64,000 nucleotides of DNA, taken from a virus (taxonomy: Duplodnaviria > Caudoviricetes). Positions 1,003 through 57,511 of the stretch are shown in pieces. The notes below the pieces were generated by a model, which worked only from the letters and a program-made list of their open reading frames with translations, did not search any database and was not told the origin of the DNA. The position numbers and the translations under genes are program-made. How positions within the stretch are numbered: position 1 is the stretch's first letter; every line of letters starts with the position of its first letter. Where the stretch lies: IMG/VR virus record IMGVR_UViG_3300034061_004620. One strand, 5' to 3'.

Positions 1003-1209
1003 ATGAAGATTGTAGAACTATTAAATAAAGTTAGATTACCAATTACAAACGAAGAATCGGACATTTTAGGAAAATTCGTAGAGTCGCAAGAAATTTCTAA
1101 GAAAGATTTAACACCAAGAGAAGTACTACTTGCAAATCAATTGGTTAATAAAGATATATTATATAGAAAAAATGATGAAGGGCGCATCTATTACAAAAAG
1201 AAAATTTGA
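1003..1209 (+). CDS. Hypothetical protein (MKIVEL N-terminus)
   Basis: 68 aa ORF tightly packed in operon. Confidence 0.65.
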   Translation: MKIVELLNKVRLPITNEESDILGKFVESQEISKKDLTPREVLLANQLVNKDILYRKNDEGRIYYKKKI

Positions 1210-1735
1210 CGATGCAAGAGATGCGTTTACAGATTTTGGGCTTAATTATATACAATCATGGACCAAGCAAGAATTAGCAAAATATAGATCGGAACCTGTA
1301 GTTATTCCAGTAGGAGACTACAGGTTTTTTGTTGGCCCATTTCAGATTCAGGGAGTACATCAGCAATGTTGGAAAGTCAGTCAAATTGACGATAAACACA
1401 CCCATGACTTTGTGGACAAAATTACTGCAATTTTATATTGTTTGTACGAAACAAGAGGACAATATGCACACTCTTCTTATCTATTAGAATTAGATAAAAA
1501 AATTGGAAAACTAAGTTCTGATATCGCATATTACGAAAACGCTCTGTACGCAAAAAAGACTGATAACTTCAAAAAAGATGTTGCATTCAATCGACTGTCA
1601 CATGCAAAAATGCAACGAAAAGATACAGTTAAGATTTTGAAAAAAACTTTAATTTCGGCTAAATACTTTAACTTTAGGAACAACAGCTATGAGACTAACA
1701 GAAATGGGCACCAAGCCCACAGCAAAAAAAATTAA
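1172..1735 (+). CDS. Hypothetical protein (start uncertain)
   Basis: Long ORF 1130-1735 filling the operon; first plausible ATG at 1172. Confidence 0.6.
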   Translation: MMKGASITKRKFDDARDAFTDFGLNYIQSWTKQELAKYRSEPVVIPVGDYRFFVGPFQIQGVHQQCWKVSQIDDKHTHDFVDKITAILYCLYETRGQYAHSSYLLELDKKIGKLSSDIAYYENALYAKKTDNFKKDVAFNRLSHAKMQRKDTVKILKKTLISAKYFNFRNNSYETNRNGHQAHSKKN

Positions 1736-2372
1736 CAAAGTAATGGAAAGCCGTTTTGGCGTAAAGATTGACTATGCTAATTTAGATTTTAAACGTGCGT
1801 ATGTGCTTGCAAGAGGACTAACAGAAAGTCTTAACAAAATCAAGCAAAGCCACGGCGTACATGTAGCAGAGAAGAATCCGAAGTATATGGAACTGCTGAT
1901 GGTACGTGAAGGTTTGCATCGCTGGATGGTAGAGAACAAGCAACAGCTTATTATGGAAAGCGAGATGGGCAAGAGTCAAGCAATTCTTGCTGCCAAAGAC
2001 ATGGTTGATTCGATTCAGGACATGTTAGAAGAAGTCAGCAAGATGCAGAACGAGCAAATGCCGGCGCTACTTGACACCATCCGTGATCAAATTGGTATGG
2101 AACAAGCAGATGCATTCAAAGCAGCAGTAGAACCATTGTTAGCAAATATGTCTCAGCAGTTAAGTTCAGCAAGAGGTACCGCAGATACAGCAGCTCGTGC
2201 GTTAGCCGGTGAACAAGTTGCACAACCAATGGGAATGGGTATGGGAGCTGCTCCAGCCGGTATGCCAGGAGAAATACCACCACCTGATATGGGTAGCGAT
2301 ATGGACACTGATGAATTTGCTGCAACCGATGCAGCGGCAGGTCCAAATGTTGTTGGTAGAGAAAAACGTTAA
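1689..2372 (+). CDS. Putative prohead core/head-associated helical protein
   Basis: MRLTEM N-terminal tag, long helical region, acidic tail; CTAAATA at 1659. Confidence 0.5.
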   Translation: MRLTEMGTKPTAKKINKVMESRFGVKIDYANLDFKRAYVLARGLTESLNKIKQSHGVHVAEKNPKYMELLMVREGLHRWMVENKQQLIMESEMGKSQAILAAKDMVDSIQDMLEEVSKMQNEQMPALLDTIRDQIGMEQADAFKAAVEPLLANMSQQLSSARGTADTAARALAGEQVAQPMGMGMGAAPAGMPGEIPPPDMGSDMDTDEFAATDAAAGPNVVGREKR

Positions 2373-2782
2373 TGCGTATTCGAGAAATTATAGTCGAGGA
2401 TGCTATTGATGAGATCCTCGAAGACGAAGCAGCCGATCCGGTTATCATGGATTTAATGAATATTCTTGAAACTATGAGGAACCGTGCTCACGACACTCAT
2501 GCTGTACCAAGAGTAAGGGCCGATTCACTAATTAATTTGGTACAAATGCAGCACCCACAATTCACTTTAGATACATTAGATCAGGCCATGTCTAATAATG
2601 AAGCATTAAAATCTTTAATTAAAGATATCAAGGATGACGCTACTGGTGTAAAGTATGTGTATCTTACACCATTTGCAGATGACGACGAAGAGGCAGTAAC
2701 CGGTGATCCAAATGCACCACGAACTCCACCAGAACGAACAGTCGACTCAATGGCCAAATCGGCTCTTGCTAAACGCAGTTAA
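2372..2782 (+). CDS. Putative head-associated protein
   Basis: MRIREIIVE N-terminal tag; TAATG coupling to the previous gene. Confidence 0.5.
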   Translation: MRIREIIVEDAIDEILEDEAADPVIMDLMNILETMRNRAHDTHAVPRVRADSLINLVQMQHPQFTLDTLDQAMSNNEALKSLIKDIKDDATGVKYVYLTPFADDDEEAVTGDPNAPRTPPERTVDSMAKSALAKRS

Positions 2783-18671: not shown

Positions 18672-18971
18672 ATGAAGATCACAGATATTATCCGCAGCGT
18701 ATTAGATGTTATAGATAATGCAGAAGCTCCTGCAGAACCTGCTCTGGCCATTACCGTACAAGTTGATCCTGAACAAGAAATGCAGGACATGCAGCGTTTG
18801 GCTGGAATTTTAGATCTCGAAGATGCAGAATTTGCCAACGAACCAAACACTATTGTAGCACCAATGGGTGCTGCTTTCCCAGCCGGGGATGATGTACATC
18901 ACAGCAAAAACCCTGCAGACATTAGAACTAATGCACCCAGCATGTTTCCCGGATATCAGGCAAGGATGTAA
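18672..18971 (+). CDS. Late hypothetical protein (MKITDII N-terminus)
   Basis: ATG 6 nt after CTAAATA. Confidence 0.65.
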   Translation: MKITDIIRSVLDVIDNAEAPAEPALAITVQVDPEQEMQDMQRLAGILDLEDAEFANEPNTIVAPMGAAFPAGDDVHHSKNPADIRTNAPSMFPGYQARM

Positions 18972-46397: not shown

Positions 46398-46553
46398 ATG
46401 TCACAAGTAGAACGTTTTGCTAACGAAGCAGTTTTTATTCTTCAACTTAACACTCGCGAGGCCACTCGTTATACCCGGCGTAATGCCGGTTGTACCGAGA
46501 TAGTGGCCGAAACTGCTATTAAACAGGCCCTCACATGGTATCGTCAAAAGTAA
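46398..46553 (+). CDS. 51-aa hypothetical (not in ORF track)
   Basis: MSQVERFANEAVFILQLNTREATRY...; SD AAGGA. Confidence 0.55.
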   Translation: MSQVERFANEAVFILQLNTREATRYTRRNAGCTEIVAETAIKQALTWYRQK

Positions 46554-46807
46554 TAGTGATTGGCACGGTGATGCTGAGTGGGTGTGCTTTGTTGCCGCCT
46601 ACTGAGCATCCTACTCCCAATGCCACCATATCACGATGGGGTGTAAACTGTGCCAATCCTGCTGTTGAACGAAGTTTGTTTGAACGCAATCTCAAACTGA
46701 TTGATAAAACTCAACTGGAGCAAAATACAGTGGCAAGAGAAAAGGTCGCTATCATTAACGATAAAATATTAGAATCAGACGACAAATGCGGATCACGTTC
46801 ACGATAA
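46535..46807 (+). CDS. Lipoprotein
   Basis: Lipobox LSGC. Confidence 0.6.
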   Translation: MVSSKVIVIGTVMLSGCALLPPTEHPTPNATISRWGVNCANPAVERSLFERNLKLIDKTQLEQNTVAREKVAIINDKILESDDKCGSRSR

Positions 46808-47106
46808 TCTGTTTGTGCTTGTTTGGTGGTTGTTCGTCTATGACCACCGAAACAAGATTGACAACAAAAGATCTCAATCATTATCAAATTGATTGCAGTG
46901 CCGAAGGCCAAAAGCAATTTCTTGAAAGTCAGCGTGTGAGCGAACGCGATGAGATCGTTAATGCACTGTTAATTCGCAGCTGGTTTGGATATATTGCATC
47001 TATCAACGACGGCACGTATCAAGAACGTAGAAACATAGACGAAGGTCGGCGCAGTGCAGTACAGCGCATGGCCGAATATGACAGGCGTAAAACATGCAGA
47101 GATTGA
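46786..47106 (+). CDS. Lipoprotein
   Basis: Lipobox FGGC after hydrophobic stretch. Confidence 0.65.
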   Translation: MRITFTIICLCLFGGCSSMTTETRLTTKDLNHYQIDCSAEGQKQFLESQRVSERDEIVNALLIRSWFGYIASINDGTYQERRNIDEGRRSAVQRMAEYDRRKTCRD

Positions 47107-47693
47107 TTGCTACCTTATTAATTGCCACAGCAGCCACAGCTTCAGCTGAGTGTTATCAGCGGCGCGAAATATTGAGTGTTGGCGGCTTGCCAATTGACAG
47201 TCGACGTGAAAGTCATGTACAGGTTCAACCCAATCACTACAAATGTACCTATTCATTTAGAGTTTTGGTAGATCGTACCTGGACCTGGGCCGAAAAGTAC
47301 GGTGAAGCTAACACAGCAGTTCGTGCTTGTTTGGCCGCACATGATGCTGCCAGTACCTGGCTCATGACTGCCGTTCCTGAACATGACATTAGTGTACAGC
47401 AAAATGTGGAAACTGTATGCGACACTGCCAAAAAACAGCCCAGACTTGTGCGAATCGGGCAAGAAGTCAATCTCAGCGATTTGACCATTGATCCAAAATT
47501 TGTCAACGCGGATGGTTCGATTCGTTTTGTTCGTCCGGTTGATGCACCTGAGCTCACATGCAGTATCTTCTTGGAAACGGTAATTAGACCCGACGGTGTT
47601 GCTGTTCAAAACAAAGGTTATGTGTGTAAGACTGGATCCACTTGGACTGTTTGGAAGAAATGGGAAAACAGCCGAATTGACAATAAACAATAA
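47094..47693 (+). CDS. Secreted Cys-containing protein
   Basis: Signal peptide ending ASA; six Cys. Confidence 0.7.
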   Translation: MQRLIATLLIATAATASAECYQRREILSVGGLPIDSRRESHVQVQPNHYKCTYSFRVLVDRTWTWAEKYGEANTAVRACLAAHDAASTWLMTAVPEHDISVQQNVETVCDTAKKQPRLVRIGQEVNLSDLTIDPKFVNADGSIRFVRPVDAPELTCSIFLETVIRPDGVAVQNKGYVCKTGSTWTVWKKWENSRIDNKQ

Positions 47694-47735
47694 TTATCTT
47701 ATACTTTAATCATGTTAGATTTTATAGGTGACGTT

Positions 47736-47855
47736 ATGAAAGCAGTAATTTTTGCAGTTGTGATTGGCCTCACTGGTTGTGGTACAGTGGGTGGAGCAGT
47801 AAGTGGTGCCGGCACCGATTTACAAAAGGCCGGCGATTGGATTAAATCTAAATAA
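47736..47855 (+). CDS. Entericidin EcnA/B-like lipopeptide (not in ORF track)
   Basis: MKAVIFAVVIGLTGCGTVGGAVSGAGTDLQKAGDWIKSK*; C-x-T...G-x-G-x-D-x4-G. Confidence 0.7.
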   Translation: MKAVIFAVVIGLTGCGTVGGAVSGAGTDLQKAGDWIKSK

Positions 47856-47865
47856 GAGGTAAATT

Positions 47866-48429
47866 ATGTATAAAGTAATTCCAGTAATTCTTGCAGTAAT
47901 GTTGACAGCCTGTAGCAGCACCAAGGATCCTGGTGTCAAGATGGCCGAAGAAGCTCGCGAGCGTAGAGTGGATGCTGCCAGAACTGTGATCAAGAGTCAA
48001 CCCAAGTGGTACCGTGAAGGTTGCCCTGCTACCACCGAAATTGCCTGTGCTATGTCTACCGAAACATCAGACAATATGCAAGCAGCTTTGGACAATGCTG
48101 TTGAATTTGCCAAAGGCCAAATTTGTGACACAGCCGGTGGACAAGTAGACAAGGTTAGTAAAACTTTTAGAACACAGGAAGGTAAAAATTCCAGCACTAA
48201 TACTAAGACTGCGATTCGCAGCAAGTGTCCAAGTGTAGATATTACTGGTGCCTATCTTGCCGAACGTGAAGTGATTGCACTAAACGATGGTACATTTCAG
48301 GCTTATGTAAAAGTGGTGCTGCCAATTGGTGAGAATCCATTGAAAGACCGCAAGGATCGTATGATTCTCAATCGAGCCAACGAAGTGGAAGGCGAGAAAC
48401 TGCTACGAGAGTTAGACAACAAGCAATAA
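47866..48429 (+). CDS. Lipoprotein (LPP20-like)
   Basis: Lipobox LTAC, PKWY motif. Confidence 0.6.
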   Translation: MYKVIPVILAVMLTACSSTKDPGVKMAEEARERRVDAARTVIKSQPKWYREGCPATTEIACAMSTETSDNMQAALDNAVEFAKGQICDTAGGQVDKVSKTFRTQEGKNSSTNTKTAIRSKCPSVDITGAYLAEREVIALNDGTFQAYVKVVLPIGENPLKDRKDRMILNRANEVEGEKLLRELDNKQ

Positions 48430-49337: not shown

Positions 49338-49351
49338 ACAATAAATACAAA

Positions 49352-50005
49352 ATGCGCTTATACGAACTTGAACAACAATCCCACGGTCGTCCAGAAATCT
49401 TCTTGGACATGGACGGCGTTTTAGCAGACTTTTTTTCAGAATATGCAAAATTGGCCGGTGTGCCTGCTGATGTCCAAAGCGGACGAGCTGATTACCGTAA
49501 TATCCCTGCAGAACTACGTGAACCTGTAATTGCACAGATGCGTGGTACAGACTTCTTTTATAGACTGCCCAAATTTGCAAGTGCTGATAGACTGGTAGCA
49601 ATGGCGATACAAGTGTTTGGCTACTACAACATCTGCAGCAGTCCTCTACGTGGAGACAATCAAAACAGTGAAGCCATGAAACGAGCTTGGATAGCTGAAA
49701 ACCTAAATCCACAGCCCCGGGTGATTCGTATTACGGGTCGCAAGGGCAAGTATGCAAAACAAGCAGATGGCACACCCAATATCTTGGTCGATGATCGTAA
49801 TAGTGTGCTAACAGAATGGGAACAAAGTGGCGGTATTGGTATCAAGTATCAAGCAGACGAAGACAGCCTGGATGTGGTTGCAAAGGGATTACGTCGAGCA
49901 TTAGAAATAGTCAAGGGCAAAAGAGAACATGTTCCGCAAGATATACAAAGTCGAGACTATGGTAAGATGATTGCTGGGCCACAGGATAAACAAGATGCGA
50001 GCTAA
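49352..50005 (+). CDS. HAD-family 5'(3')-deoxyribonucleotidase-like protein with N-terminal tag
   Basis: MRLYELE; FLDMDGVLADF, K..W, LVDD. Confidence 0.8.
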   Translation: MRLYELEQQSHGRPEIFLDMDGVLADFFSEYAKLAGVPADVQSGRADYRNIPAELREPVIAQMRGTDFFYRLPKFASADRLVAMAIQVFGYYNICSSPLRGDNQNSEAMKRAWIAENLNPQPRVIRITGRKGKYAKQADGTPNILVDDRNSVLTEWEQSGGIGIKYQADEDSLDVVAKGLRRALEIVKGKREHVPQDIQSRDYGKMIAGPQDKQDAS

Positions 50006-50384
50006 AGAATTTGTAGTAGAAAGTACCTTTCGTGATCACGAATCGCAACTGCGTGACTTTGTGGTATGGTGCGTAAAAGAATTGAACATTGAACAAGCTT
50101 TGCCAAAGATTCGTTTTCAAGATGCTAAGGAAGGTCCAGATCAACATAGAACAGGTTATTATGATGATGCCGAAGACATCATGTGGATTTACACCGGCAA
50201 CAGAAACTTGATTGATATCATGCGTACAGTGGCGCACGAATTGGCTCACAGAAAGCAATACGAGGACAACATGGTTGATGGCGATCAGGCTTACCCTGGG
50301 TCACCAATTGAACAACAAGCCGATGCAGTGGCTGGATATCTAATGAAGCTGTATGGCAAGGCCAATCCGGAGATCATTGAGTGA
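49995..50384 (+). CDS. HExxH metallopeptidase-like protein with N-terminal tag
   Basis: MRAKEFVVE; VAHELAHRKQ and downstream EQQADA. Confidence 0.7.
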   Translation: MRAKEFVVESTFRDHESQLRDFVVWCVKELNIEQALPKIRFQDAKEGPDQHRTGYYDDAEDIMWIYTGNRNLIDIMRTVAHELAHRKQYEDNMVDGDQAYPGSPIEQQADAVAGYLMKLYGKANPEIIE

Positions 50385-50959
50385 GAGCAAGAGAGTTTAT
50401 AAAAGAAGAACGCGAAGAGTGGTATAGTATGAATACTCCTCTGATGCAACAACAATTTGATCAGTGGGATCAACAAAAACGCGGCCGTAATGCTCTAACC
50501 ACTATGCCGTTGCCAAAAACCGATTCCAGATACACGGTAGGACCTGATTTTGTTAAAGACCCAGCGGCGCCAAGTGATCTGATAAGAAACCCGCAGGTGG
50601 CCAAAGAATTAGGCTTTCCTGGTGGTTGGACTGACAACAAGCCCGTACGAATGACACGAAAAATGCTTGACCCTGCTACAGGCAATGTTCAATTGGGTCC
50701 TGATAAACTTGTACAACCAGGCACGGAAGAATACGCAGAATTACAACAACGAGTCAATCCCATAACAGGCAGAATTCGTAATGCTGTCAATGCACGAATA
50801 CCAAAGGGACCATCTGAACCGCCCAGTCCGGAACACGAGCTACGATCAAATGTGTTCAGAAATCAAACCCAGGATAAAGGCAAAGAAGCAACATTTCCAA
50901 GTGATCAGCCCAGAGGCTATCGCATAGGCGATCCTTTTAGACAGAAATACAGAACATGA
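50381..50959 (+). CDS. Tagged hypothetical protein
   Basis: MRAREFIKE (GTG start). Confidence 0.7.
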   Translation: MRAREFIKEEREEWYSMNTPLMQQQFDQWDQQKRGRNALTTMPLPKTDSRYTVGPDFVKDPAAPSDLIRNPQVAKELGFPGGWTDNKPVRMTRKMLDPATGNVQLGPDKLVQPGTEEYAELQQRVNPITGRIRNAVNARIPKGPSEPPSPEHELRSNVFRNQTQDKGKEATFPSDQPRGYRIGDPFRQKYRT

Positions 50960-53664
50960 GATACAAAGAATTTAACTTAACCGAAGACGAACTGTTTGAG
51001 CTCAACATGAGCCCAACCAATCTGGCCAAGATGGTCAAAGGCATTGATGCCCGAGTGGGCATGGAGTTTGAACTGATTGTGCCCAATGTTGATAATCCCG
51101 ACGAAGATGAATATGAAAGCGAACCTGACTATGATGCCGATGAAAGTTTCCCTACTGGTCCCGGGTGGACAAGAGATGTAATTGATTTCTTCCGCGGTGG
51201 CGACATGGGCAACAGTAGAGCCCTTATACAACGCCAAATTGATGAATTAAATGAAAACTTTTATGCGTGGGTAGACGAAGATCAAGAAGAATTTATAAAT
51301 TCCGTTGAAGGACAAGATCGCATCACAGAAATTGCAGGCAGCAATGTAGATAGATCAGATTATGACACTGATGAAGAGTATGTAGCGGCCATTCAAGCCT
51401 ACATCGACGAAAATGAGGACTACATTCGTGATGAGTTGATTGACGAATACAACGACAATCTTGACAGTAAATTTGAAGAATGGTTAGATGACCAAGGCAT
51501 CAACACCATGGCTGACTTTGCCAACGAGTACGATTTAGAATGGCCGTATTGGACCCAGCCGGATTACAACAGCGGTGGTGGTGCCAGTATTGATGCAGTA
51601 GCTGATGACTTTAGTCAAGCCATTGGTCGTCCAGTAAATGCAGCCAGCAGTTATCATGGCGCCACAAGACGCCCCGGACACTATGTGGTAGAACCTGACG
51701 GTAGCTTGCAGGGAGACCAGGGCGAAACAGGACTGGAGTTTGTTAGTCCTGTGCTGACCGTAGATGAAATGCTGTCTGACATAGACAAGGTGGTGGCGTG
51801 GGCTGAGCGAGCAGGCGCCTATACCAACAGCAGCACAGGCTTGCACATGAATGTTAGTGTGCCCAATCAGAAAAATCTTGACTATGTGAAATTGGCCATG
51901 TTCCTGGGCGACAACTACATCCTGGAACAGTTTGGTAGAGAAGGTAATACCTATTGTAAATCTGCTCTAAAGAAAATTGTCACCATGGGTCGCGGTGATC
52001 CCAGTCGTGTTGAAGAAATGATGCGTCAGTTCCAGGGCGGACTAAGTGAATTGGCCAGCAAAATATTACATACAGGTAGCACAGAAAAATTTACCAGCAT
52101 AAACAATCGTGATCAGTGGGTGGAATTCCGTGGCCCGGGCGGTGATTGGATGACTGGCGACGCCGGTATAACCACTGTGAAAAACACCTTGCTCAGAGCA
52201 GTGGCAGCACTTAGTGTGGCTACTAAGCCCGAAGAGTTCAAACAAGAATACTACAAGAAATTGTACAAAACTCTAACACAAGGCCGGGAAGATGATACCA
52301 TCCAATACTTTGCCAAGTATGCAGCCGGTGAATTACCACAAAGTGCATTGAAAGCATTTGTAAGAAACATTCAGGGCAAGAGAAAAGCTAATAAACTTGC
52401 ACTTGGTGCCAAAGACATCTTGTTGGTATGGAAGGTTATTGGTAGCCAAAACAGCCCTTATCAAAGCCAAGGCGTAGAAGTTGTGGCCATGGATGAGTTG
52501 GGTGCATACAAAGAAGCTATTAAAAAATGGAGCCTAAACTTGGGTGGTAATAGTATAGAAGATTACACTCAGCAAAATGGTTGGCGAGCTCAACCCGTAC
52601 GAGCAGCTACCAGCAATGATATGAACATGGCTTCGAACAAGTTTTATCGTGTGGCAGTAGGTGGCAGACCTGACCGGAAAGTATATGTAAGAGCAATGAG
52701 TGAATACCAGGCAAAAACTTTAGCTGTTCAAAGACACGCTGATGTATTTGCCAATGTGACCTTTGATGACATGGTAGCAATTCATGATCCGGACTATCAA
52801 GGTGAAGAAACTGCTGTAGCTGCGATGCGAGCCAGATCAGGAGAACCTATACCAGCTGGCGCTGTAGGTGGAGAACAAAGCACAGATGCCAACTATGAAA
52901 TCTATAACACAGAAACTAATCGTAGTATGTTTAGATTTATTGCTAACACCGATCCTGAAGCCGAAAGAAAGTATCAAGATTGGTTATCTGGCTCCAACAG
53001 TAGTCCAGAATTATTCAAGTGGCGTAGAATAGAAAACCGTGGCATACCTGGATCAACTGCTGAATTACAGAGACAACGAACTGCACAAACACCAAGTCGT
53101 GATCAAGAATTTACCGGGCACTGGGAAGTAGTTAGTAGAAACACCAATGAGGTTGTATCCGTAATAAGCGGTATCGGAAACGCAGTAGCGGACGCCGAAA
53201 GACACGCAGCAAGATGGCAACAACAAACAGGGTTTGATGATCCTATTTACGTGAGACCACTCATGCGACCAAGAGACAATCTGTCACGCAATCAAGGTGA
53301 AGTTCAACAACGATTCACAGTTGATTACACTATACGTCAGTACGGAGATATTATGAACAATAGGGTCACTGTTCCTGCGGCCAATGCCGACGCTGCTATG
53401 GCCAACGTTAGAAATCAACTTGAAGCCAGTAGAGCTGAGGTTCTCAGAATTGAAGCTGATCCTGTGACACAGGCACCAGCTCGAGGTACTGAAAGCCTAC
53501 CACCAGGCAATACTCGTTGGTTGGTATTAGATCAAAATGATCGTGAAGTGTATAGTTTTGTTCATCGCAGCAACCAAGGCGAAGCAAATCAGTATGCTGC
53601 GAATTGGTTAAGAGGAAACAACATGGTTGGACAAGGTGAATTTACTGTGGTGCCAGCAAGATGA
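50956..53664 (+). CDS. Amidoligase (COOH-NH2 ligase type 2) with acidic insert and C-terminal repeats
   Basis: MRYKEFNLTE; GMEFE, EPDGSL, GLEFVSP, TNSSTGLHMNVS, SIN, VEFR. Confidence 0.8.
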   Translation: MRYKEFNLTEDELFELNMSPTNLAKMVKGIDARVGMEFELIVPNVDNPDEDEYESEPDYDADESFPTGPGWTRDVIDFFRGGDMGNSRALIQRQIDELNENFYAWVDEDQEEFINSVEGQDRITEIAGSNVDRSDYDTDEEYVAAIQAYIDENEDYIRDELIDEYNDNLDSKFEEWLDDQGINTMADFANEYDLEWPYWTQPDYNSGGGASIDAVADDFSQAIGRPVNAASSYHGATRRPGHYVVEPDGSLQGDQGETGLEFVSPVLTVDEMLSDIDKVVAWAERAGAYTNSSTGLHMNVSVPNQKNLDYVKLAMFLGDNYILEQFGREGNTYCKSALKKIVTMGRGDPSRVEEMMRQFQGGLSELASKILHTGSTEKFTSINNRDQWVEFRGPGGDWMTGDAGITTVKNTLLRAVAALSVATKPEEFKQEYYKKLYKTLTQGREDDTIQYFAKYAAGELPQSALKAFVRNIQGKRKANKLALGAKDILLVWKVIGSQNSPYQSQGVEVVAMDELGAYKEAIKKWSLNLGGNSIEDYTQQNGWRAQPVRAATSNDMNMASNKFYRVAVGGRPDRKVYVRAMSEYQAKTLAVQRHADVFANVTFDDMVAIHDPDYQGEETAVAAMRARSGEPIPAGAVGGEQSTDANYEIYNTETNRSMFRFIANTDPEAERKYQDWLSGSNSSPELFKWRRIENRGIPGSTAELQRQRTAQTPSRDQEFTGHWEVVSRNTNEVVSVISGIGNAVADAERHAARWQQQTGFDDPIYVRPLMRPRDNLSRNQGEVQQRFTVDYTIRQYGDIMNNRVTVPAANADAAMANVRNQLEASRAEVLRIEADPVTQAPARGTESLPPGNTRWLVLDQNDREVYSFVHRSNQGEANQYAANWLRGNNMVGQGEFTVVPAR

Positions 53665-54116
53665 GAGCAGTAGATTTCTTAGGTGAATTATTTGATCCCG
53701 CTACAGCGTTTGAGATAGAGTGGGATGAAACATTTGCACCTGATGAATTACATGCCACATCCTACGATAGGCAAGGTCGTGAGATCAATATTAGCTTTGT
53801 GCCAATCAGCGGCGATGCAGTAGACATAGAGTTTAAGCGAGGTGGCAGTTTTGATGTTACTGGTAGAGGTGATGCAGAAAGAGTGTTTGGCACGGTTATT
53901 CAGGCAGTTGCAACATATCTTAGTAAGTATCGTAGACCTGAATACATATTGTTCAGCGGTAAAGAAACCAGCAGAAACAAATTGTATCTACGCTTGGTGG
54001 CAAGATATGCGGCAAGATACGGTTATCAAGAAATTGGCATAAATGATTTGCCCGATGAACTGTTTTCTATGTCATTGCCTGCAGATATTTTTATTTTACA
54101 GCGAGTGGGTCAATGA
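53661..54116 (+). CDS. Tagged hypothetical protein
   Basis: MRAVDFLGE; TGRGDA..VF.TV...ILFSG...SRNKLY. Confidence 0.7.
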   Translation: MRAVDFLGELFDPATAFEIEWDETFAPDELHATSYDRQGREINISFVPISGDAVDIEFKRGGSFDVTGRGDAERVFGTVIQAVATYLSKYRRPEYILFSGKETSRNKLYLRLVARYAARYGYQEIGINDLPDELFSMSLPADIFILQRVGQ

Positions 54117-55219
54117 GAGCAGATGATTTTTTAAACGAAGGTGGTCTTAGAAGCTGGTTATGGAAACTGGGCAAAGATGCCTTTGACTATGCAGCCGGTC
54201 AAGCTCCTCGTGTAAAAAATACCATAGATCAACCCAAAGGCGGCATGTTTGGTGGCCGGGTTCCTGGTAGCCCTGATGATGTTTCGCATGTGTATAGAAA
54301 CATGAGCCCAGAAGAATTAGCGGCAGCTCGCAAGTCCGGCTACTTTGAAAAGAATCCAGCCCCCGGTCGTACCACATGGGATACAGATAAAAAGTATTGG
54401 AGCCAAGGTGATACCGAAGGTTATTTTGGTCGAGCCTGGAAAGACACTCCAGACAACGCACAAGTAAGATTACCGCAAGAAAAGCTGCCTCGCTGGACAG
54501 CAGGCAGAACTGGAGATGCCGAAGTAATTGATAAAACTACAGGTACATGGGGACCAGTCAAGGAAGACGATCTTGATGAAATGGCTGGCAAAATAAATGT
54601 TGGTATCAGCCAATATCTTGCAAAAAAAGGCTACAAATATCTTGGTGGCGGTATAGACAAACAGGCCTATCTGGAACCCGGTGGACAAGTATTGATTGTG
54701 TTTGGCTATCGTCAAGGCACAATATTTGACTTTAGTCCGGATCAAAGAATGTTTGTAAACTGGATCAACTATTGTAATAAAAATTCAAACAATCCGCACT
54801 TGCCCAAGTTCTCAGGCTTTGAAAGTTTTGAATTTCAAGGCAGACGATACATCCAGGCCAGAATGGAAGCACTACGAGAATTACCCGGCGAAGTAGGTAA
54901 TCTGGTCGGTAACATTGAAGAAGCTGTTCGGAAATTAAGAAAAAACAATTATGATACTGCATTCAACACCCTAATCAATTATGCTCAACACAGCAGTTAT
55001 GAAGACGAAGATCCCTACTACTACGAAATTGAGAATACAATGGAATTACTGGGCGGAGCAGAGGCAGCAAAGAATTTATTAAAGACTGTAAAGACAGTGC
55101 AACAATTTGCAAGAAAACACAACTACAGCATAGATCTACATCGTGGTAATTATATGCAACGACCAGACGGTACTATTGTGGTCAATGATCCTTTTGTGAT
55201 CTGGGAAAGAAATCTATGA
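54113..55219 (+). CDS. Tagged two-domain protein: possible ART-like domain plus kinase-like domain
   Basis: MRADDFLNE; VYRNMSPEE; LGGGIDKQAY, MEAL, DLHRGNYM, VNDPF. Confidence 0.65.
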   Translation: MRADDFLNEGGLRSWLWKLGKDAFDYAAGQAPRVKNTIDQPKGGMFGGRVPGSPDDVSHVYRNMSPEELAAARKSGYFEKNPAPGRTTWDTDKKYWSQGDTEGYFGRAWKDTPDNAQVRLPQEKLPRWTAGRTGDAEVIDKTTGTWGPVKEDDLDEMAGKINVGISQYLAKKGYKYLGGGIDKQAYLEPGGQVLIVFGYRQGTIFDFSPDQRMFVNWINYCNKNSNNPHLPKFSGFESFEFQGRRYIQARMEALRELPGEVGNLVGNIEEAVRKLRKNNYDTAFNTLINYAQHSSYEDEDPYYYEIENTMELLGGAEAAKNLLKTVKTVQQFARKHNYSIDLHRGNYMQRPDGTIVVNDPFVIWERNL

Positions 55220-56238
55220 GAGCCGACGAGTTTGTAACTGAACGTAAAAAGAAAAAACGTAAACGCAGCAACAAATATTTCGGCGGTTACTGGTATCCCG
55301 GCTACGGTTATTACGGCAGTGGTGCGTACGGCGGCGAGTCAGGCGATGGTGGTGGAGATGGTGGCGGTGGAGAAAGTGTCACAGAAGCCAAAACCAGCAA
55401 GGTGCTTTTTATAGGCAACGATACTGCTATTGTGGGACAAGAACATGGCAAGCGATTACAGTTGTCAGATTCTGACGCTGAAAGAGTACAAGCCATTGCC
55501 CAACGTCACGGTGCCTGGTACGAAGGCAATGGTATGGATCGCAAACTTACCCAAGGCATCATTGACGATTATGAAGGTAGTTGGGATGACGATTTGTTAT
55601 CTCCGGCCATCAAAGGATATCCTGCACCATTCTTATATGTTCTATTCTCTAATATAAAAGAGAATGATACGGTAGAAGGCAAGATTGGATCGGATCCTGA
55701 ATCTACAATATTTGATAGAATAATTGACACACAACCCAGCACAAACTATTTTCCAGATAGAAAGTTTGATGCTGAAACATTACAAAAGTTTTTACAGGCT
55801 GTCAGCGAAGGACCGTATGATTTTGTTCAAATGAGTCAAGCACCTGCTACAGAAAGTAATGTTAGACGATTTTTTACCATGGGTGAACAGCTGATGTGGC
55901 CTGATAATTGGGAACAATATCCTAACCGTGCAGGTCGCGTGGCAAAATCAGTAAATGACTTACGTGACAAGTTTTTAGCTTCCCGAAAACAGGGAGTGTA
56001 TGTGGCCGGCAGTGACCATCTCCAAGCGGTAAAACAGTTTTTAGATCAAACAGTAAATGAAAATTTTGCCGATGGCAAGATTAAGAGCAAAAGCCGTCCT
56101 GGGCGTGTGAAGAGAGCAGGAGCCAGCTGCAACGGCTCTGTCACAGACTTACGCCAACGTGCCAAGAATGCCAGCGGCGAAAAAGCCAAGATGTATCACT
56201 GGTGTGCAAACATGAAAAGCGGCCGCAGTAAAAAATAA
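55216..56238 (+). CDS. Tagged multi-segment protein with possible TIKI/ChaN-like domain and basic C-terminal domain
   Basis: MRADEFVTE; Gly/Tyr linker; GQEHG, WYEG, AGSDH; C-terminal K/R-rich two-Cys segment. Confidence 0.6.
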   Translation: MRADEFVTERKKKKRKRSNKYFGGYWYPGYGYYGSGAYGGESGDGGGDGGGGESVTEAKTSKVLFIGNDTAIVGQEHGKRLQLSDSDAERVQAIAQRHGAWYEGNGMDRKLTQGIIDDYEGSWDDDLLSPAIKGYPAPFLYVLFSNIKENDTVEGKIGSDPESTIFDRIIDTQPSTNYFPDRKFDAETLQKFLQAVSEGPYDFVQMSQAPATESNVRRFFTMGEQLMWPDNWEQYPNRAGRVAKSVNDLRDKFLASRKQGVYVAGSDHLQAVKQFLDQTVNENFADGKIKSKSRPGRVKRAGASCNGSVTDLRQRAKNASGEKAKMYHWCANMKSGRSKK

Positions 56239-56246
56239 ATAAATTT

Positions 56247-57146
56247 ATGCCTAATATAGACCGTGTTCTCAATTTAATAGATCAGTGCGACTTTTCTGCA
56301 GATAATCCTTTTGAGCTTCGTGAAAATTTATTTCCTGTTCTCGGCGAAATAGCTTCTCCCACAATCGTAAAACTATTCGAAAAAACTTGTTATAACGGTT
56401 GGCTTGTTTTTGGGTTCGAAGCTGAAAATGCTGTAGTACTACGGTACGACAATATTTTATCAAAATTCAATGACGGATCATTAGATGTATATTTTGGACA
56501 CTTGTCAGAATCTGAACGTAATCAAATAAAATCAAAGTTCAAAGAAGTTATAGACGATGAAGTAAAACACAGTGAAATGTTTAGTGCCATTATTGGCAAG
56601 ATGAAAGCTATCAAAGACTATAGACCAGAATTTGTCTCACCTACTTGTTTGGAATTTATACAATCAGAAAACGATCTTTGGCACACAAATAGTTTTATTG
56701 AACTATTACCAAACATTGTAACTGGCGAAAGCTATTTGTATGCGGCATTTGTTTTGTTTTCTAAGTATAGCAAAAATCCTATCAAACAACAAATTTTTAA
56801 AGAATTTATTAGAGATGAGTCAAGACATGTAGCGCACTTTATGAATATAATGAAAAAAGCTTATATAGATGATGTTGAACAAAAAAGATACGATAGAAAG
56901 TTTTTCCAATTTGCCAAAGATAGGTCACAATTTGAAGATGCAAAATTTAAAAATTTTTTAGACACGTTATCTATAAGTGCCGAAATAAAAAAAAATATCG
57001 TCAATAAAGCTTATACTACAGAATTTCACCAAACTTTCAGAAAGTTGTATGCTAAGAAAACCTGGCAATTTTACAACATAGTGTTTCCTGACGTTGATCA
57101 AGAAACATATGAAAAGATGTTGTATCCAAATTTAATAAATAGTTAA
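56247..57146 (+). CDS. Ferritin-like di-iron protein
   Basis: Paired E...DExxH motifs: FEAE/DDEVKH and GES/RDESRH. Confidence 0.65.
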   Translation: MPNIDRVLNLIDQCDFSADNPFELRENLFPVLGEIASPTIVKLFEKTCYNGWLVFGFEAENAVVLRYDNILSKFNDGSLDVYFGHLSESERNQIKSKFKEVIDDEVKHSEMFSAIIGKMKAIKDYRPEFVSPTCLEFIQSENDLWHTNSFIELLPNIVTGESYLYAAFVLFSKYSKNPIKQQIFKEFIRDESRHVAHFMNIMKKAYIDDVEQKRYDRKFFQFAKDRSQFEDAKFKNFLDTLSISAEIKKNIVNKAYTTEFHQTFRKLYAKKTWQFYNIVFPDVDQETYEKMLYPNLINS

Positions 57147-57511
57147 TGCGTTCTCATGAATTCGACAACAAACAAACTGCTGTTAGATATTTTAGCCGAC
57201 GACCTGAAGTGGTTGGTAAAGTGGATGCAGGCGACTACACTTTTTTCTTAGACGAACACCTATTAGACCAAGCCCAAGACCGGCGAGTAGATGATTTTGT
57301 GCTTACCAAAGTAATACCAAAAATACCACAAGCCAAAGCCAAAATACGTCAACTGGGCGCAGGCCAGCATTTTTGGCTTTACGATAATACCAATCAAATT
57401 GCACTTGGCGTGCAAATATGGCACACAGATTACAAAATTTTTATTATAAGAACCGTATGGAATGGCATGCCCTCAAGCGATGCTAATTATCCAATCTTTA
57501 ATGTTGCATAA
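57146..57511 (+). CDS. Tagged small protein, possibly BECR/DUF4258-like RNase fold
   Basis: MRSHEF; H-x3-Q-x3-R-x-V and C-terminal IIRTVW. Confidence 0.5.
   Translation: MRSHEFDNKQTAVRYFSRRPEVVGKVDAGDYTFFLDEHLLDQAQDRRVDDFVLTKVIPKIPQAKAKIRQLGAGQHFWLYDNTNQIALGVQIWHTDYKIFIIRTVWNGMPSSDANYPIFNVA

Follow-up and report, generated by a model that had tools for sequence, protein, structure and literature searches.

A T4-like N-terminal leader shared by otherwise unrelated proteins marks a candidate capsid cargo locus in an uncultured jumbo phage

The DNA analysed here, 64,000 nucleotides of a Caudoviricetes virus and hereafter called the window, comes from the IMG/VR record IMGVR_UViG_3300034061_004620 and corresponds to about positions 256,001-320,000 of a 346,174-nucleotide metagenomic contig (GCA_043530955.1, JBFDBT010006480.1). 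Positions 49352-57511 of the window hold a block of nine tandem genes on the plus strand, eight of which open with the same kind of short N-terminal leader, or tag (M-R-x-x-[E/D]-F). We propose that this block is an enlarged, enzyme-carrying version of the internal-protein system of phage T4, with loading of the type mediated by the T4 capsid targeting sequence (CTS) and processing of the gp21 type, and that it is related to the polyvalent proteins of phages. We consider this reading probable and take delivery of the proteins to the host to be less certain than their loading and processing. Since the tag, as judged by comparison with relatives, ends in a site of the head-protease type, the enzymes are probably packed in the virus head, and the block is best explained as a hypervariable cargo locus in an uncultured jumbo phage of the T4 superfamily from a lake.

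The listing of open reading frames (ORFs), an independent gene call on the identical contig and a start-codon scan agree on nine genes encoding, in order, 217, 129, 192, 902, 151, 368, 340, 299 and 121 amino acids, of which only gene 8 (56247-57146) is untagged, bearing out the initial annotation, which had counted eight tagged genes among nine consecutive ones. The tagged proteins start MRLYELE (49352), MRAKEFVVE (49995), MRAREFIKE (50381, from a GTG codon), MRYKEFNLTE (50956), MRAVDFLGE (53661), MRADDFLNE (54113), MRADEFVTE (55216) and MRSHEF (57146), and six of the eight tags continue with [I/L/V]-x-E at positions 7-9 or 8-10. The consensus is a leader of 9-10 residues, M-R-A-x-[E/D]-F-[I/L/V]-x-E. 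What follows it differs from gene to gene, as had been claimed, the nine proteins matching different families or none. The tag is also portable and modular, again as first described: among homologues collected via three of the modules, 256 of 314 that begin with methionine carry it, and residues 10-30 downstream of it take 193 distinct forms. Within these 256 proteins conservation extends over the whole leader (R2 in 88%, A3 in 83%, E or D at position 5 in 99%, F6 in 85%, I, L, V or T at position 7 in 94% and E9 in 83%).

The tag is restricted to gene starts and to one kind of locus. A scan of the window for M[RK]xx[ED][hydrophobic] found the pattern at 11 of 111 ORF starts compared with 2 of 385 internal methionines (Fisher p = 2.4e-6), and when the window was pooled with five related IMG/VR contigs (78-166 kb, taken whole) the counts were 54 of 923 gene starts and 16 of 3517 internal methionines (p = 3e-24). 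Each of the five related contigs has the tag only at the syntenic locus, and in the window's own record, of which about 130 kb were scanned, it is limited to the block and to three clustered ORFs (window positions 1003-2782), with the genes for ribonucleotide reductase, Fe-S cluster and sugar metabolism lacking it. In the window the codons used for the tag vary (CGC, CGA, AGA or CGT for arginine; GCT, GCA or GCC for alanine; GAA or GAG for glutamate; TTT or TTC for phenylalanine). As synonymous codons differ at each conserved position, selection has acted on the peptide and not on the DNA.

What is new is that, in the sequences compared, the N-terminal tag and an internal [L/I/V/M]-x-E junction replace each other at the boundaries of five unrelated modules, with the same first residues behind them. 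The basic module that ends gene 7 is preceded by VNE/NFADGK in the window (the slash marks the boundary), by IEE/NFADGK in a fusion protein of the related contig G001 and by the tag itself, MRAYEFITE/NFADGK, in a 71-residue gene product of the related contig G005; in 149 database proteins with this module the residue at -1 is glutamate in all 149 and that at -3 is V, L, I or M in 123. A kinase-like domain, found in the window in gene 6, begins MAGxI directly behind a glutamate in 110 of 110 homologues, with L, I or V at -3 in 99 of them. This glutamate belongs to a tag in 12 cases (MRAQDFTTE/MAG) and to an internal junction in 98 (LDE/MAG), where the partners ahead of it include HicA, a domain starting DNPDYDE and the N-domain of gene 6; 106 of 118 kinase-domain homologues open with the tag. 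The gene 6 N-domain ends in PVKE in the window, and it does so too when joined directly to the basic module. The amidoligase follows MRYKEFNLTE/DELFE in the window and ...QLDE/DELFELKMS inside a 1603-residue protein of G001, and a basic Gly/Tyr-rich peptide follows FVTE/RKKKK in the window and SLSE/RKRKK in G001. Lastly, a domain with two GxxH motifs follows VTE, VWE or MNE junctions or the tag itself (SVTE/AKTSK, NVWE/NAEYSDR, MRAREFVTE/AKTVD). As background, 1.6% of the positions in these proteins show [LIVM]xE, and AlphaFold models the linker ahead of the basic module as disordered (predicted local distance difference test, pLDDT, < 50).

The lineage possesses a protease of the kind that would cut at such sites. 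G001, which carries the locus, encodes a gp21 homologue (PF03420, E value 4e-27) beside an acidic core protein and a 362-residue ORF in the position of the scaffold gene gp22. A word-indexed search found at least 8000 candidate relatives of gp21 in metagenomes, all with E <= 1e-20. A portal-gp21-gp22-gp23 module contains one of these candidates; the leaders of its proteins end in L-I-E and I-W-E, and its capsid protein carries L-K-E close to residue 42. In T4 the established specificity of the gp21 protease is [L/I/V]-x-Glu. Upstream of the window its record, read by exact-protein look-up over positions 190,435-256,000, encodes a T4-type large terminase, a RecA/UvsX-type recombinase and a DnaB-type helicase, and the nearest cultured-phage matches of the window are virion proteins of T4-like cyanophages.

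The amidoligase is the only module for which homologues were found in cultured phages, and one of these has been detected in virions. The homologue in Agrobacterium phage Atu_ph07 (AUZ94978.1; 30.6% identity over about 236 residues, E value 4e-22) starts MRWQDISSKKLTE-LKMNS and is separated from the portal gene by a single gene. By gene order and mass (57.94 kDa) we identified it as gp196, which was found in purified Atu_ph07 virions by mass spectrometry with 14 peptides and 30% coverage (PMC6102473 Table S5). The homologue in phage RsoM2USA starts MKLIQKLSE-LKMDMS; the virion data for that phage cover ten abundant gel bands only and do not bear on this protein. Three distant jumbo phages of the T4 superfamily thus have an amidoligase with a short L-x-E leader, and in the one tested so far the protein is virion-associated.

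We propose that the leader would work like the T4 CTS, binding the scaffolding core and drawing its protein into the prohead, where a gp21-type head protease would cut after the final glutamate of the tag and after the internal [L/I/V/M]-x-E junctions. The freed modules (the HAD domain, the HExxH peptidase, the amidoligase, the kinase, the GxxH-GxxH domain and the basic peptides) would remain beside the DNA inside the head and probably enter the next host along with the genome. From core binding and gp21 cleavage through retention in the head to injection and a role of the enzymes in the host, this is the sequence of events that we infer. Several points weigh against it. The tag has nothing that corresponds to Tyr4 of the T4 sequence, a residue important for targeting, and the tags of genes 1 and 9 (49352 and 57146) lack the hydrophobic-x-E at positions 7-9. 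The cargo consists of large enzymes, unlike the small basic internal proteins of T4. No gp21 or head module was present in the window's record over the positions read, about 190-320 kb. The conserved glutamate, or the whole of ENFADGK, could belong to the folded modules instead of a cleavage site, and the junctions shared by homologues are partly due to descent. Moreover, the block's own HExxH peptidase could be the processing enzyme, and the signals for twin-arginine translocation (Tat) that stand behind the tags of some relatives fit processing and export in the producing cell equally well.

These last two points would suit a cytoplasmic polyprotein or propeptide system, in which the HExxH peptidase or another protease makes the cuts and the enzymes act in the producing cell, some of them exported through Tat and none packaged. 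An HExxH peptidase homologue is indeed present in the locus of six of the six contigs compared, and metallopeptidases have been proposed as the processors of polyvalent proteins (PMC5512222). In four proteins of relatives (P0069, P0010, P0085 and P0094) a Tat signal lies directly after the tag or after an internal junction that is tag-like or IEE, which suggests that cleavage would expose a working Tat signal and lead to re-export of a phage protein to the periplasm; a Cu/Zn superoxide dismutase is among the cargo. We nevertheless regard such a system as unlikely, since the junctions have the motif of the gp21 serine protease and of no known zincin, and the head proteins of the clade share it. 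The leader resembles the T4 CTS along its whole length, beyond the cut site. A separately translated gene would need no removable leader of nine residues just in order to be cut, and the amidoligase homologue is physically present in the virions of Atu_ph07.

How far the locus varies bears on whether the cargo leaves the head. Relatives at 66-92% protein identity retain the HAD, peptidase and amidoligase genes and the basic end module, and the remaining genes of the locus have been gained, lost or fused between them. No homologue of gene 3 turned up in the related loci (tblastn, E <= 1e-5), and it is for this reason counted as variable cargo; gene 8 was found, among the related loci compared, in the window and in G005 only. 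The modules of the window are mostly single genes, with two to four modules each in genes 4, 6 and 7; in G001 they are joined into a 1603-residue fusion (nucleotidyltransferase, basic Gly/Tyr-rich peptide, HExxH peptidase, amidoligase) and a 365-residue fusion (HAD, gene 9 module, basic module), so that the likening of the block to polyvalent proteins split into single genes, made in the initial annotation, gains support. Were the proteins loaded into the capsid and not delivered, they would serve within the head, in DNA condensation, nucleotide clean-up or the chemistry of assembly and maturation. Basic peptides, which are suited to DNA binding, are the only products conserved throughout, and the basic module is present in a single copy per contig, which would suit such a role. 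This alternative is, however, quite improbable in our judgement: the locus shows a hypervariability among close relatives that is characteristic of conflict genes, its kinase, HicA, GNAT, NUDIX, nucleotidase and ParB-like families match known host-directed phage effectors, and the internal proteins of T4, as well as CTS fusions, are ejected (PMC9026906). That the shared start has no peptide function at all, and reflects translational coupling (ATGA/GTGA), a downstream-box effect or a recombination joint between cassettes, is very improbable, for although five of the eight tagged genes overlap the preceding stop, which favours AGA as second codon, and the cargo is clearly shuffled at the tag points, synonymous codons vary at all conserved positions, the non-overlapping genes use CGN for arginine, conservation reaches position 9 with the pattern of a cleavage site, and internal junctions, at which no translation starts, show this pattern again.

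Returning to the reading of the block as packaged cargo, one very widespread element is the basic module of 58 residues that closes gene 7 (56062-56238, plus strand; NFADGK...HWCANMKSGR, with VNE directly before it). An exhaustive HMMER search of a library clustered at 50% identity found 1282 clusters at E <= 1e-3. The top 150 proteins are 82-95% identical in the module and otherwise unrelated, with lengths of 85-1405 residues; the motif was located in 149 of them, of which 140 have the module at the C terminus and 99 open with the tag. It had no Pfam, PHROG or GenBank-phage match, and the NFADGK motif was not found in the literature searched. Judged by these searches, the module of 57-58 residues is an undescribed and very widespread family. 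The domains fused ahead of it in relatives include GNAT, NT5C, NUDIX, ParB_N, a Pol-beta nucleotidyltransferase, the Cu/Zn superoxide dismutase, GH19 and a dCMP deaminase.

Two further small basic pieces were observed. A peptide of 48 residues, encoded at window positions 55243-55386 (about 8700-8850 in L009), recurs in many relatives immediately after a tag or an LSE junction and is composed of a Lys/Arg run, a Gly/Tyr-rich stretch (YFGGYWYPGYGYYGSG) and an acidic Gly-rich tail ending in SVTE, in that order; by its composition it looks like a nucleic-acid-binding or condensate-forming piece. A second small basic piece, which contains cysteine, also stands behind the tag and opens with KWSxK in P0041, P0055, P0094, P0138 and P0144. 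Its continuation (...YKRSINCSNPKGFSQKAHCAGRKK) was read in P0094 only; the piece recalls the basic end module.

It is conceivable that the locus is an insertion site in an ancestral internal-protein gene, whose minimal form would be the tag joined to the basic protein of 57-58 residues, as in the 71-residue gene product of one relative. In thousands of uncultured phages enzyme domains of almost any kind would then have been spliced in between, flanked by head-protease sites, so that one protease in one compartment would yield a customised set of injected enzymes, and in some relatives the cut would in addition expose a Tat signal for re-export to the periplasm. We put this wider scenario forward tentatively and hold it possible, not probable.

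The identity of the cargo could be traced to different depths in different genes, all of them on the plus strand. Gene 1 (49352-50005, 217 residues) joins the divergent tag MRLYELE to a predicted HAD-type 5'(3')-deoxyribonucleotidase; it matches PHROG 2643 (E value 1.9e-18) and has a DMDGV motif at residues 19-23. It has no Pfam match at E <= 0.1; among relatives, four proteins with the basic module at their end carry PF06941 (NT5C). Gene 2 (49995-50384, 129 residues) carries behind its tag MRAKEFVVE a small HExxH metallopeptidase-like domain with the motif HELAH. Its matches to DUF3920 (3.4e-5), Peptidase_M78 (0.027) and the PHROG 87 metalloprotease (0.0027) are sub-threshold, the MPTase-PolyVal family is not among its Pfam matches at E <= 0.1, and a homologous segment lies inside the 1603-residue fused protein of G001. 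Gene 3 (50381-50959, 192 residues; tag MRAREFIKE), whose GTG start overlaps the preceding stop, matches no family. Gene 4 (50956-53664, 902 residues), with the leader MRYKEFNLTE-DELFE, matches PF12224 (Amidoligase_2; E value 2e-11, 44.7 bits against a cut-off of 22) at about residues 210-398, which are followed by a long C-terminal extension. In gene 5 (53661-54116, 151 residues) the tag MRAVDFLGE precedes DUF6934 (PF22028; E value 3.2e-7, 30.9 bits against a cut-off of 27), a family also present on five module-bearing proteins of relatives.

Gene 6 (54113-55219, 368 residues) is composed of the tag MRADDFLNE, an N-domain reaching to ...PVKE at residue 151, the junction DDLDE and a kinase-like domain (157-368) that begins MAGKI. 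Its C-terminal half matches PHROG 15752 (T7-type kinase; E value 9e-9), PF27024 is a precomputed match on homologues, and the AlphaFold model of residues 160-364 (pLDDT about 85) gave Foldseek matches to MEK1, PknB, APH and FN3K at E values of 1e-4 to 1e-3 and a probability of about 1, which supports the prediction of a protein-kinase-like fold of the T7 gp0.7 type. The N-domain had no Pfam, PHROG or PDB sequence match, and residues 1-150 were modelled at pLDDT < 50. In many relatives (P0281-P0283, P0293, P0324 and others) a HicA-type mRNA interferase toxin domain (PF07927) lies behind the tag and is fused to the kinase through LDE/MAG. In gene 7 the first three parts (55216-56061) are the tag MRADEFVTE, the 48-residue Gly/Tyr-rich peptide ending in SVTE and a globular domain of 225 residues (58-282) with two GxxH motifs, conserved as GQEH and GSDH. 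The model of this domain (pLDDT 84.9) had no significant PDB match with Foldseek or VIA-align, and a PDB sequence search of gene 6 and of the GxxH domain gave no match; about ten weak TraB/GumN/ChaN rows were obtained (E values 0.07-0.4), with a Z score of 3.8 for ChaN and a feature score of 0.84.

Gene 8 (56247-57146, 299 residues) encodes an untagged ferritin/rubrerythrin-like protein (PF02915, E value 9.7e-7) and is probably not cargo. It also shows a far sub-threshold NCBIfam match to encapsulin ferritin-like cargo (EncB family, E value 0.0011). Gene 9 (57146-57511, 121 residues) has the divergent tag MRSHEF and a body that is possibly DUF4258-like, of the BECR RNase fold; it has no Pfam match at E <= 0.1, and a DUF4258 cluster ranks sixth in the feature search (score 0.86). 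Of the identities first assigned to these proteins, HAD nucleotidase, amidoligase and kinase-like thus hold on PHROG, Pfam and fold matches. The HExxH peptidase stands as to its motif, its family matches being sub-threshold only, and TIKI-like and RNase-like remain weak leads, from the GxxH motifs with their weak rows and from the DUF4258 feature score. The ADP-ribosyltransferase (ART) assignment of gene 6, for which we have no family match and a model of low confidence, is unsupported.

The block may be expressed late. A T4-late-promoter-like AATAAATA at 49340-49347 (plus strand), 4 nucleotides ahead of the ATG of gene 1, probably heads a unit of seven overlapping or abutting genes (49352-56238), and genes 8 and 9 have their own AATAAATA at 56234-56241 and 57134-57141, the NATAAATA motifs lying 4-5 nucleotides before the ATG of genes 1, 8 and 9. 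Ahead of gene 1, CAATAAATACAAA-ATG is kept in L005-L008 and L012 despite differing upstream genes. Throughout the window, NATAAATA at 198, 21099, 23163, 49340, 56234 and 57134 stands 4-6 nucleotides before a start and leaves no room for a Shine-Dalgarno sequence, an architecture that looks like leaderless late mRNAs made from T4-type late promoters. As TATAAATA itself showed no enrichment in the window, where scans for sigma-70 promoters and terminators stayed at background, the argument for late promoters is one of the position and conservation of NATAAATA, and the promoter-like motif is what would make the block late.

Outside the block, two tagged genes of the plus strand lie at 1689-2782, encoding a protein of 227 residues that starts MRLTEM and one of 136 residues that starts MRIREIIVE; the former matches PHROG 14154, 'virion structural protein' (E value 1.3e-9). 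Among the similar starts listed at the outset that at 2372 (MRIREIIVE) fits well and that at 1689 in part, and those at 1003 and 18672 fit loosely, beginning MK... and lacking E9. The ORF at 18672-18971, which starts MKITDIIRSVLD, has a single orthologue in each of G002, G004 and G005 and lacks the glutamate at position 9; its leader is probably not the tag of the block. This genome has a second class of shared leader, MxDPRFFRxYLxILxE, beside its terminase gene: two proteins that carry it (MTDPRFFRQYLEILKE and MSDPRFFRRYLDILDE) are encoded just upstream of the large terminase (L059 199-1883, about 190,600-192,300 of the record), and a staphylococcal-nuclease-like protein with a Sec-type signal peptide adjoins the pair. 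Directly upstream of the block, at 46535-48429, four small proteins have lipoprotein-type or signal-peptide starts and are kept in G005. A megablast search of GenBank phages with the block and tblastn searches with the basic module, the kinase domain and the GxxH domain gave no match, and a cultured close relative is therefore lacking.

If our reading is correct, the tag together with the junction motif allows one to read, directly from sequence, which proteins are packaged and probably injected by a large and abundant clade of freshwater jumbo phages that are still uncultured. That set would be made up of enzymes (nucleotidase, kinase, amidoligase and peptidase, and in relatives acetyltransferase, NUDIX and HicA) and not of small inhibitors of the T4 type. 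The T4 capsid targeting sequence and phage polyvalent proteins, hitherto separate ideas, would be linked, and a natural design rule for loading foreign enzymes into T4-like heads would be at hand. The basic module of 57-58 residues is a concrete new family to characterise.

The closest known counterpart of the tag is the CTS of the T4 internal proteins IPI, IPII and IPIII (Mullaney and Black 1996; PMC3012670, PMC9026906), a leader of about ten residues (MKTYQEFIAE) with a similar order of basic, aromatic and acidic positions and a hydrophobic-x-Glu end. Phe7 of the T4 leader plays a part in targeting, and Ile8 and Glu10 play one in processing (PMC9026906); all three have counterparts in the block tag, which is one residue shorter and lacks Tyr4. 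The initial suggestion that the tag resembles the T4 CTS and ends in a gp21-type site gains from this position-by-position likeness over 256 tagged proteins. Just as here, the internal proteins of T-even phages have only their packaging leader in common, occupy a variable hotspot and are injected (PMC3012670, PMC12373910); in both cases the leader is the sole shared part of unrelated proteins and the lineage has a gp21-type protease. The block differs in that its cargo, known here from sequence alone, consists mostly of enzymes of 120-900 residues, many of them with several modules and internal junctions of the same type. Only two of its products, both of them parts of gene 7 (the 58-residue module and the Lys/Arg-rich peptide), answer to the description of small basic cargo, and because the rest is enzyme-sized the locus would work like the T4 system without being a classical internal-protein set. 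The T-even hotspot likewise exchanges leader-sharing genes between relatives (Repoila et al. 1994; PMC12373910), but T4 Ip1-3 are specific inhibitors of the GmrSD restriction enzyme, whereas the present locus offers a catalytic repertoire in an uncultured freshwater clade.

Polyvalent proteins (Iyer et al. 2017, PMC5512222) are strings of unrelated effector-type domains, a metallopeptidase among them, for which delivery along with the DNA and cutting into units have been proposed; the 365- and 1603-residue fusions of G001 resemble them. In the window, by contrast, the modules are mostly separate genes, each with a leader, and the junction motif points to the head protease rather than to the embedded metallopeptidase; it is the equivalence of tag and junction that ties fusions of the polyvalent type to that protease. 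To our knowledge no single portable N-terminal tag common to the cargo has been described for the phiKZ-like giants, which belong to a different phage lineage. These giants, for example SPN3US, nevertheless resemble the proposed system in that many head-internal proteins with propeptides are cut at x-x-Glu by a protease related to T4 gp21 and a large protein mass is ejected (PMC5694885, PMC10052503). The gp196 protein of Atu_ph07 is comparable as an Amidoligase_2 protein detected in virions, with a short leader ending in L-T-E before LKMNS; it differs in its low identity (about 30% over about 236 residues) and in its position near the portal gene and not in a tagged array. Such tags are not discussed in a review of T4-related genomes or in a review of jumbo phages. 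Compared with the known systems, what is new is the enzyme-sized cargo, the equivalence of tag and junction, the undescribed and near-invariant basic end module and, in some relatives, the Tat signals behind predicted cut sites.

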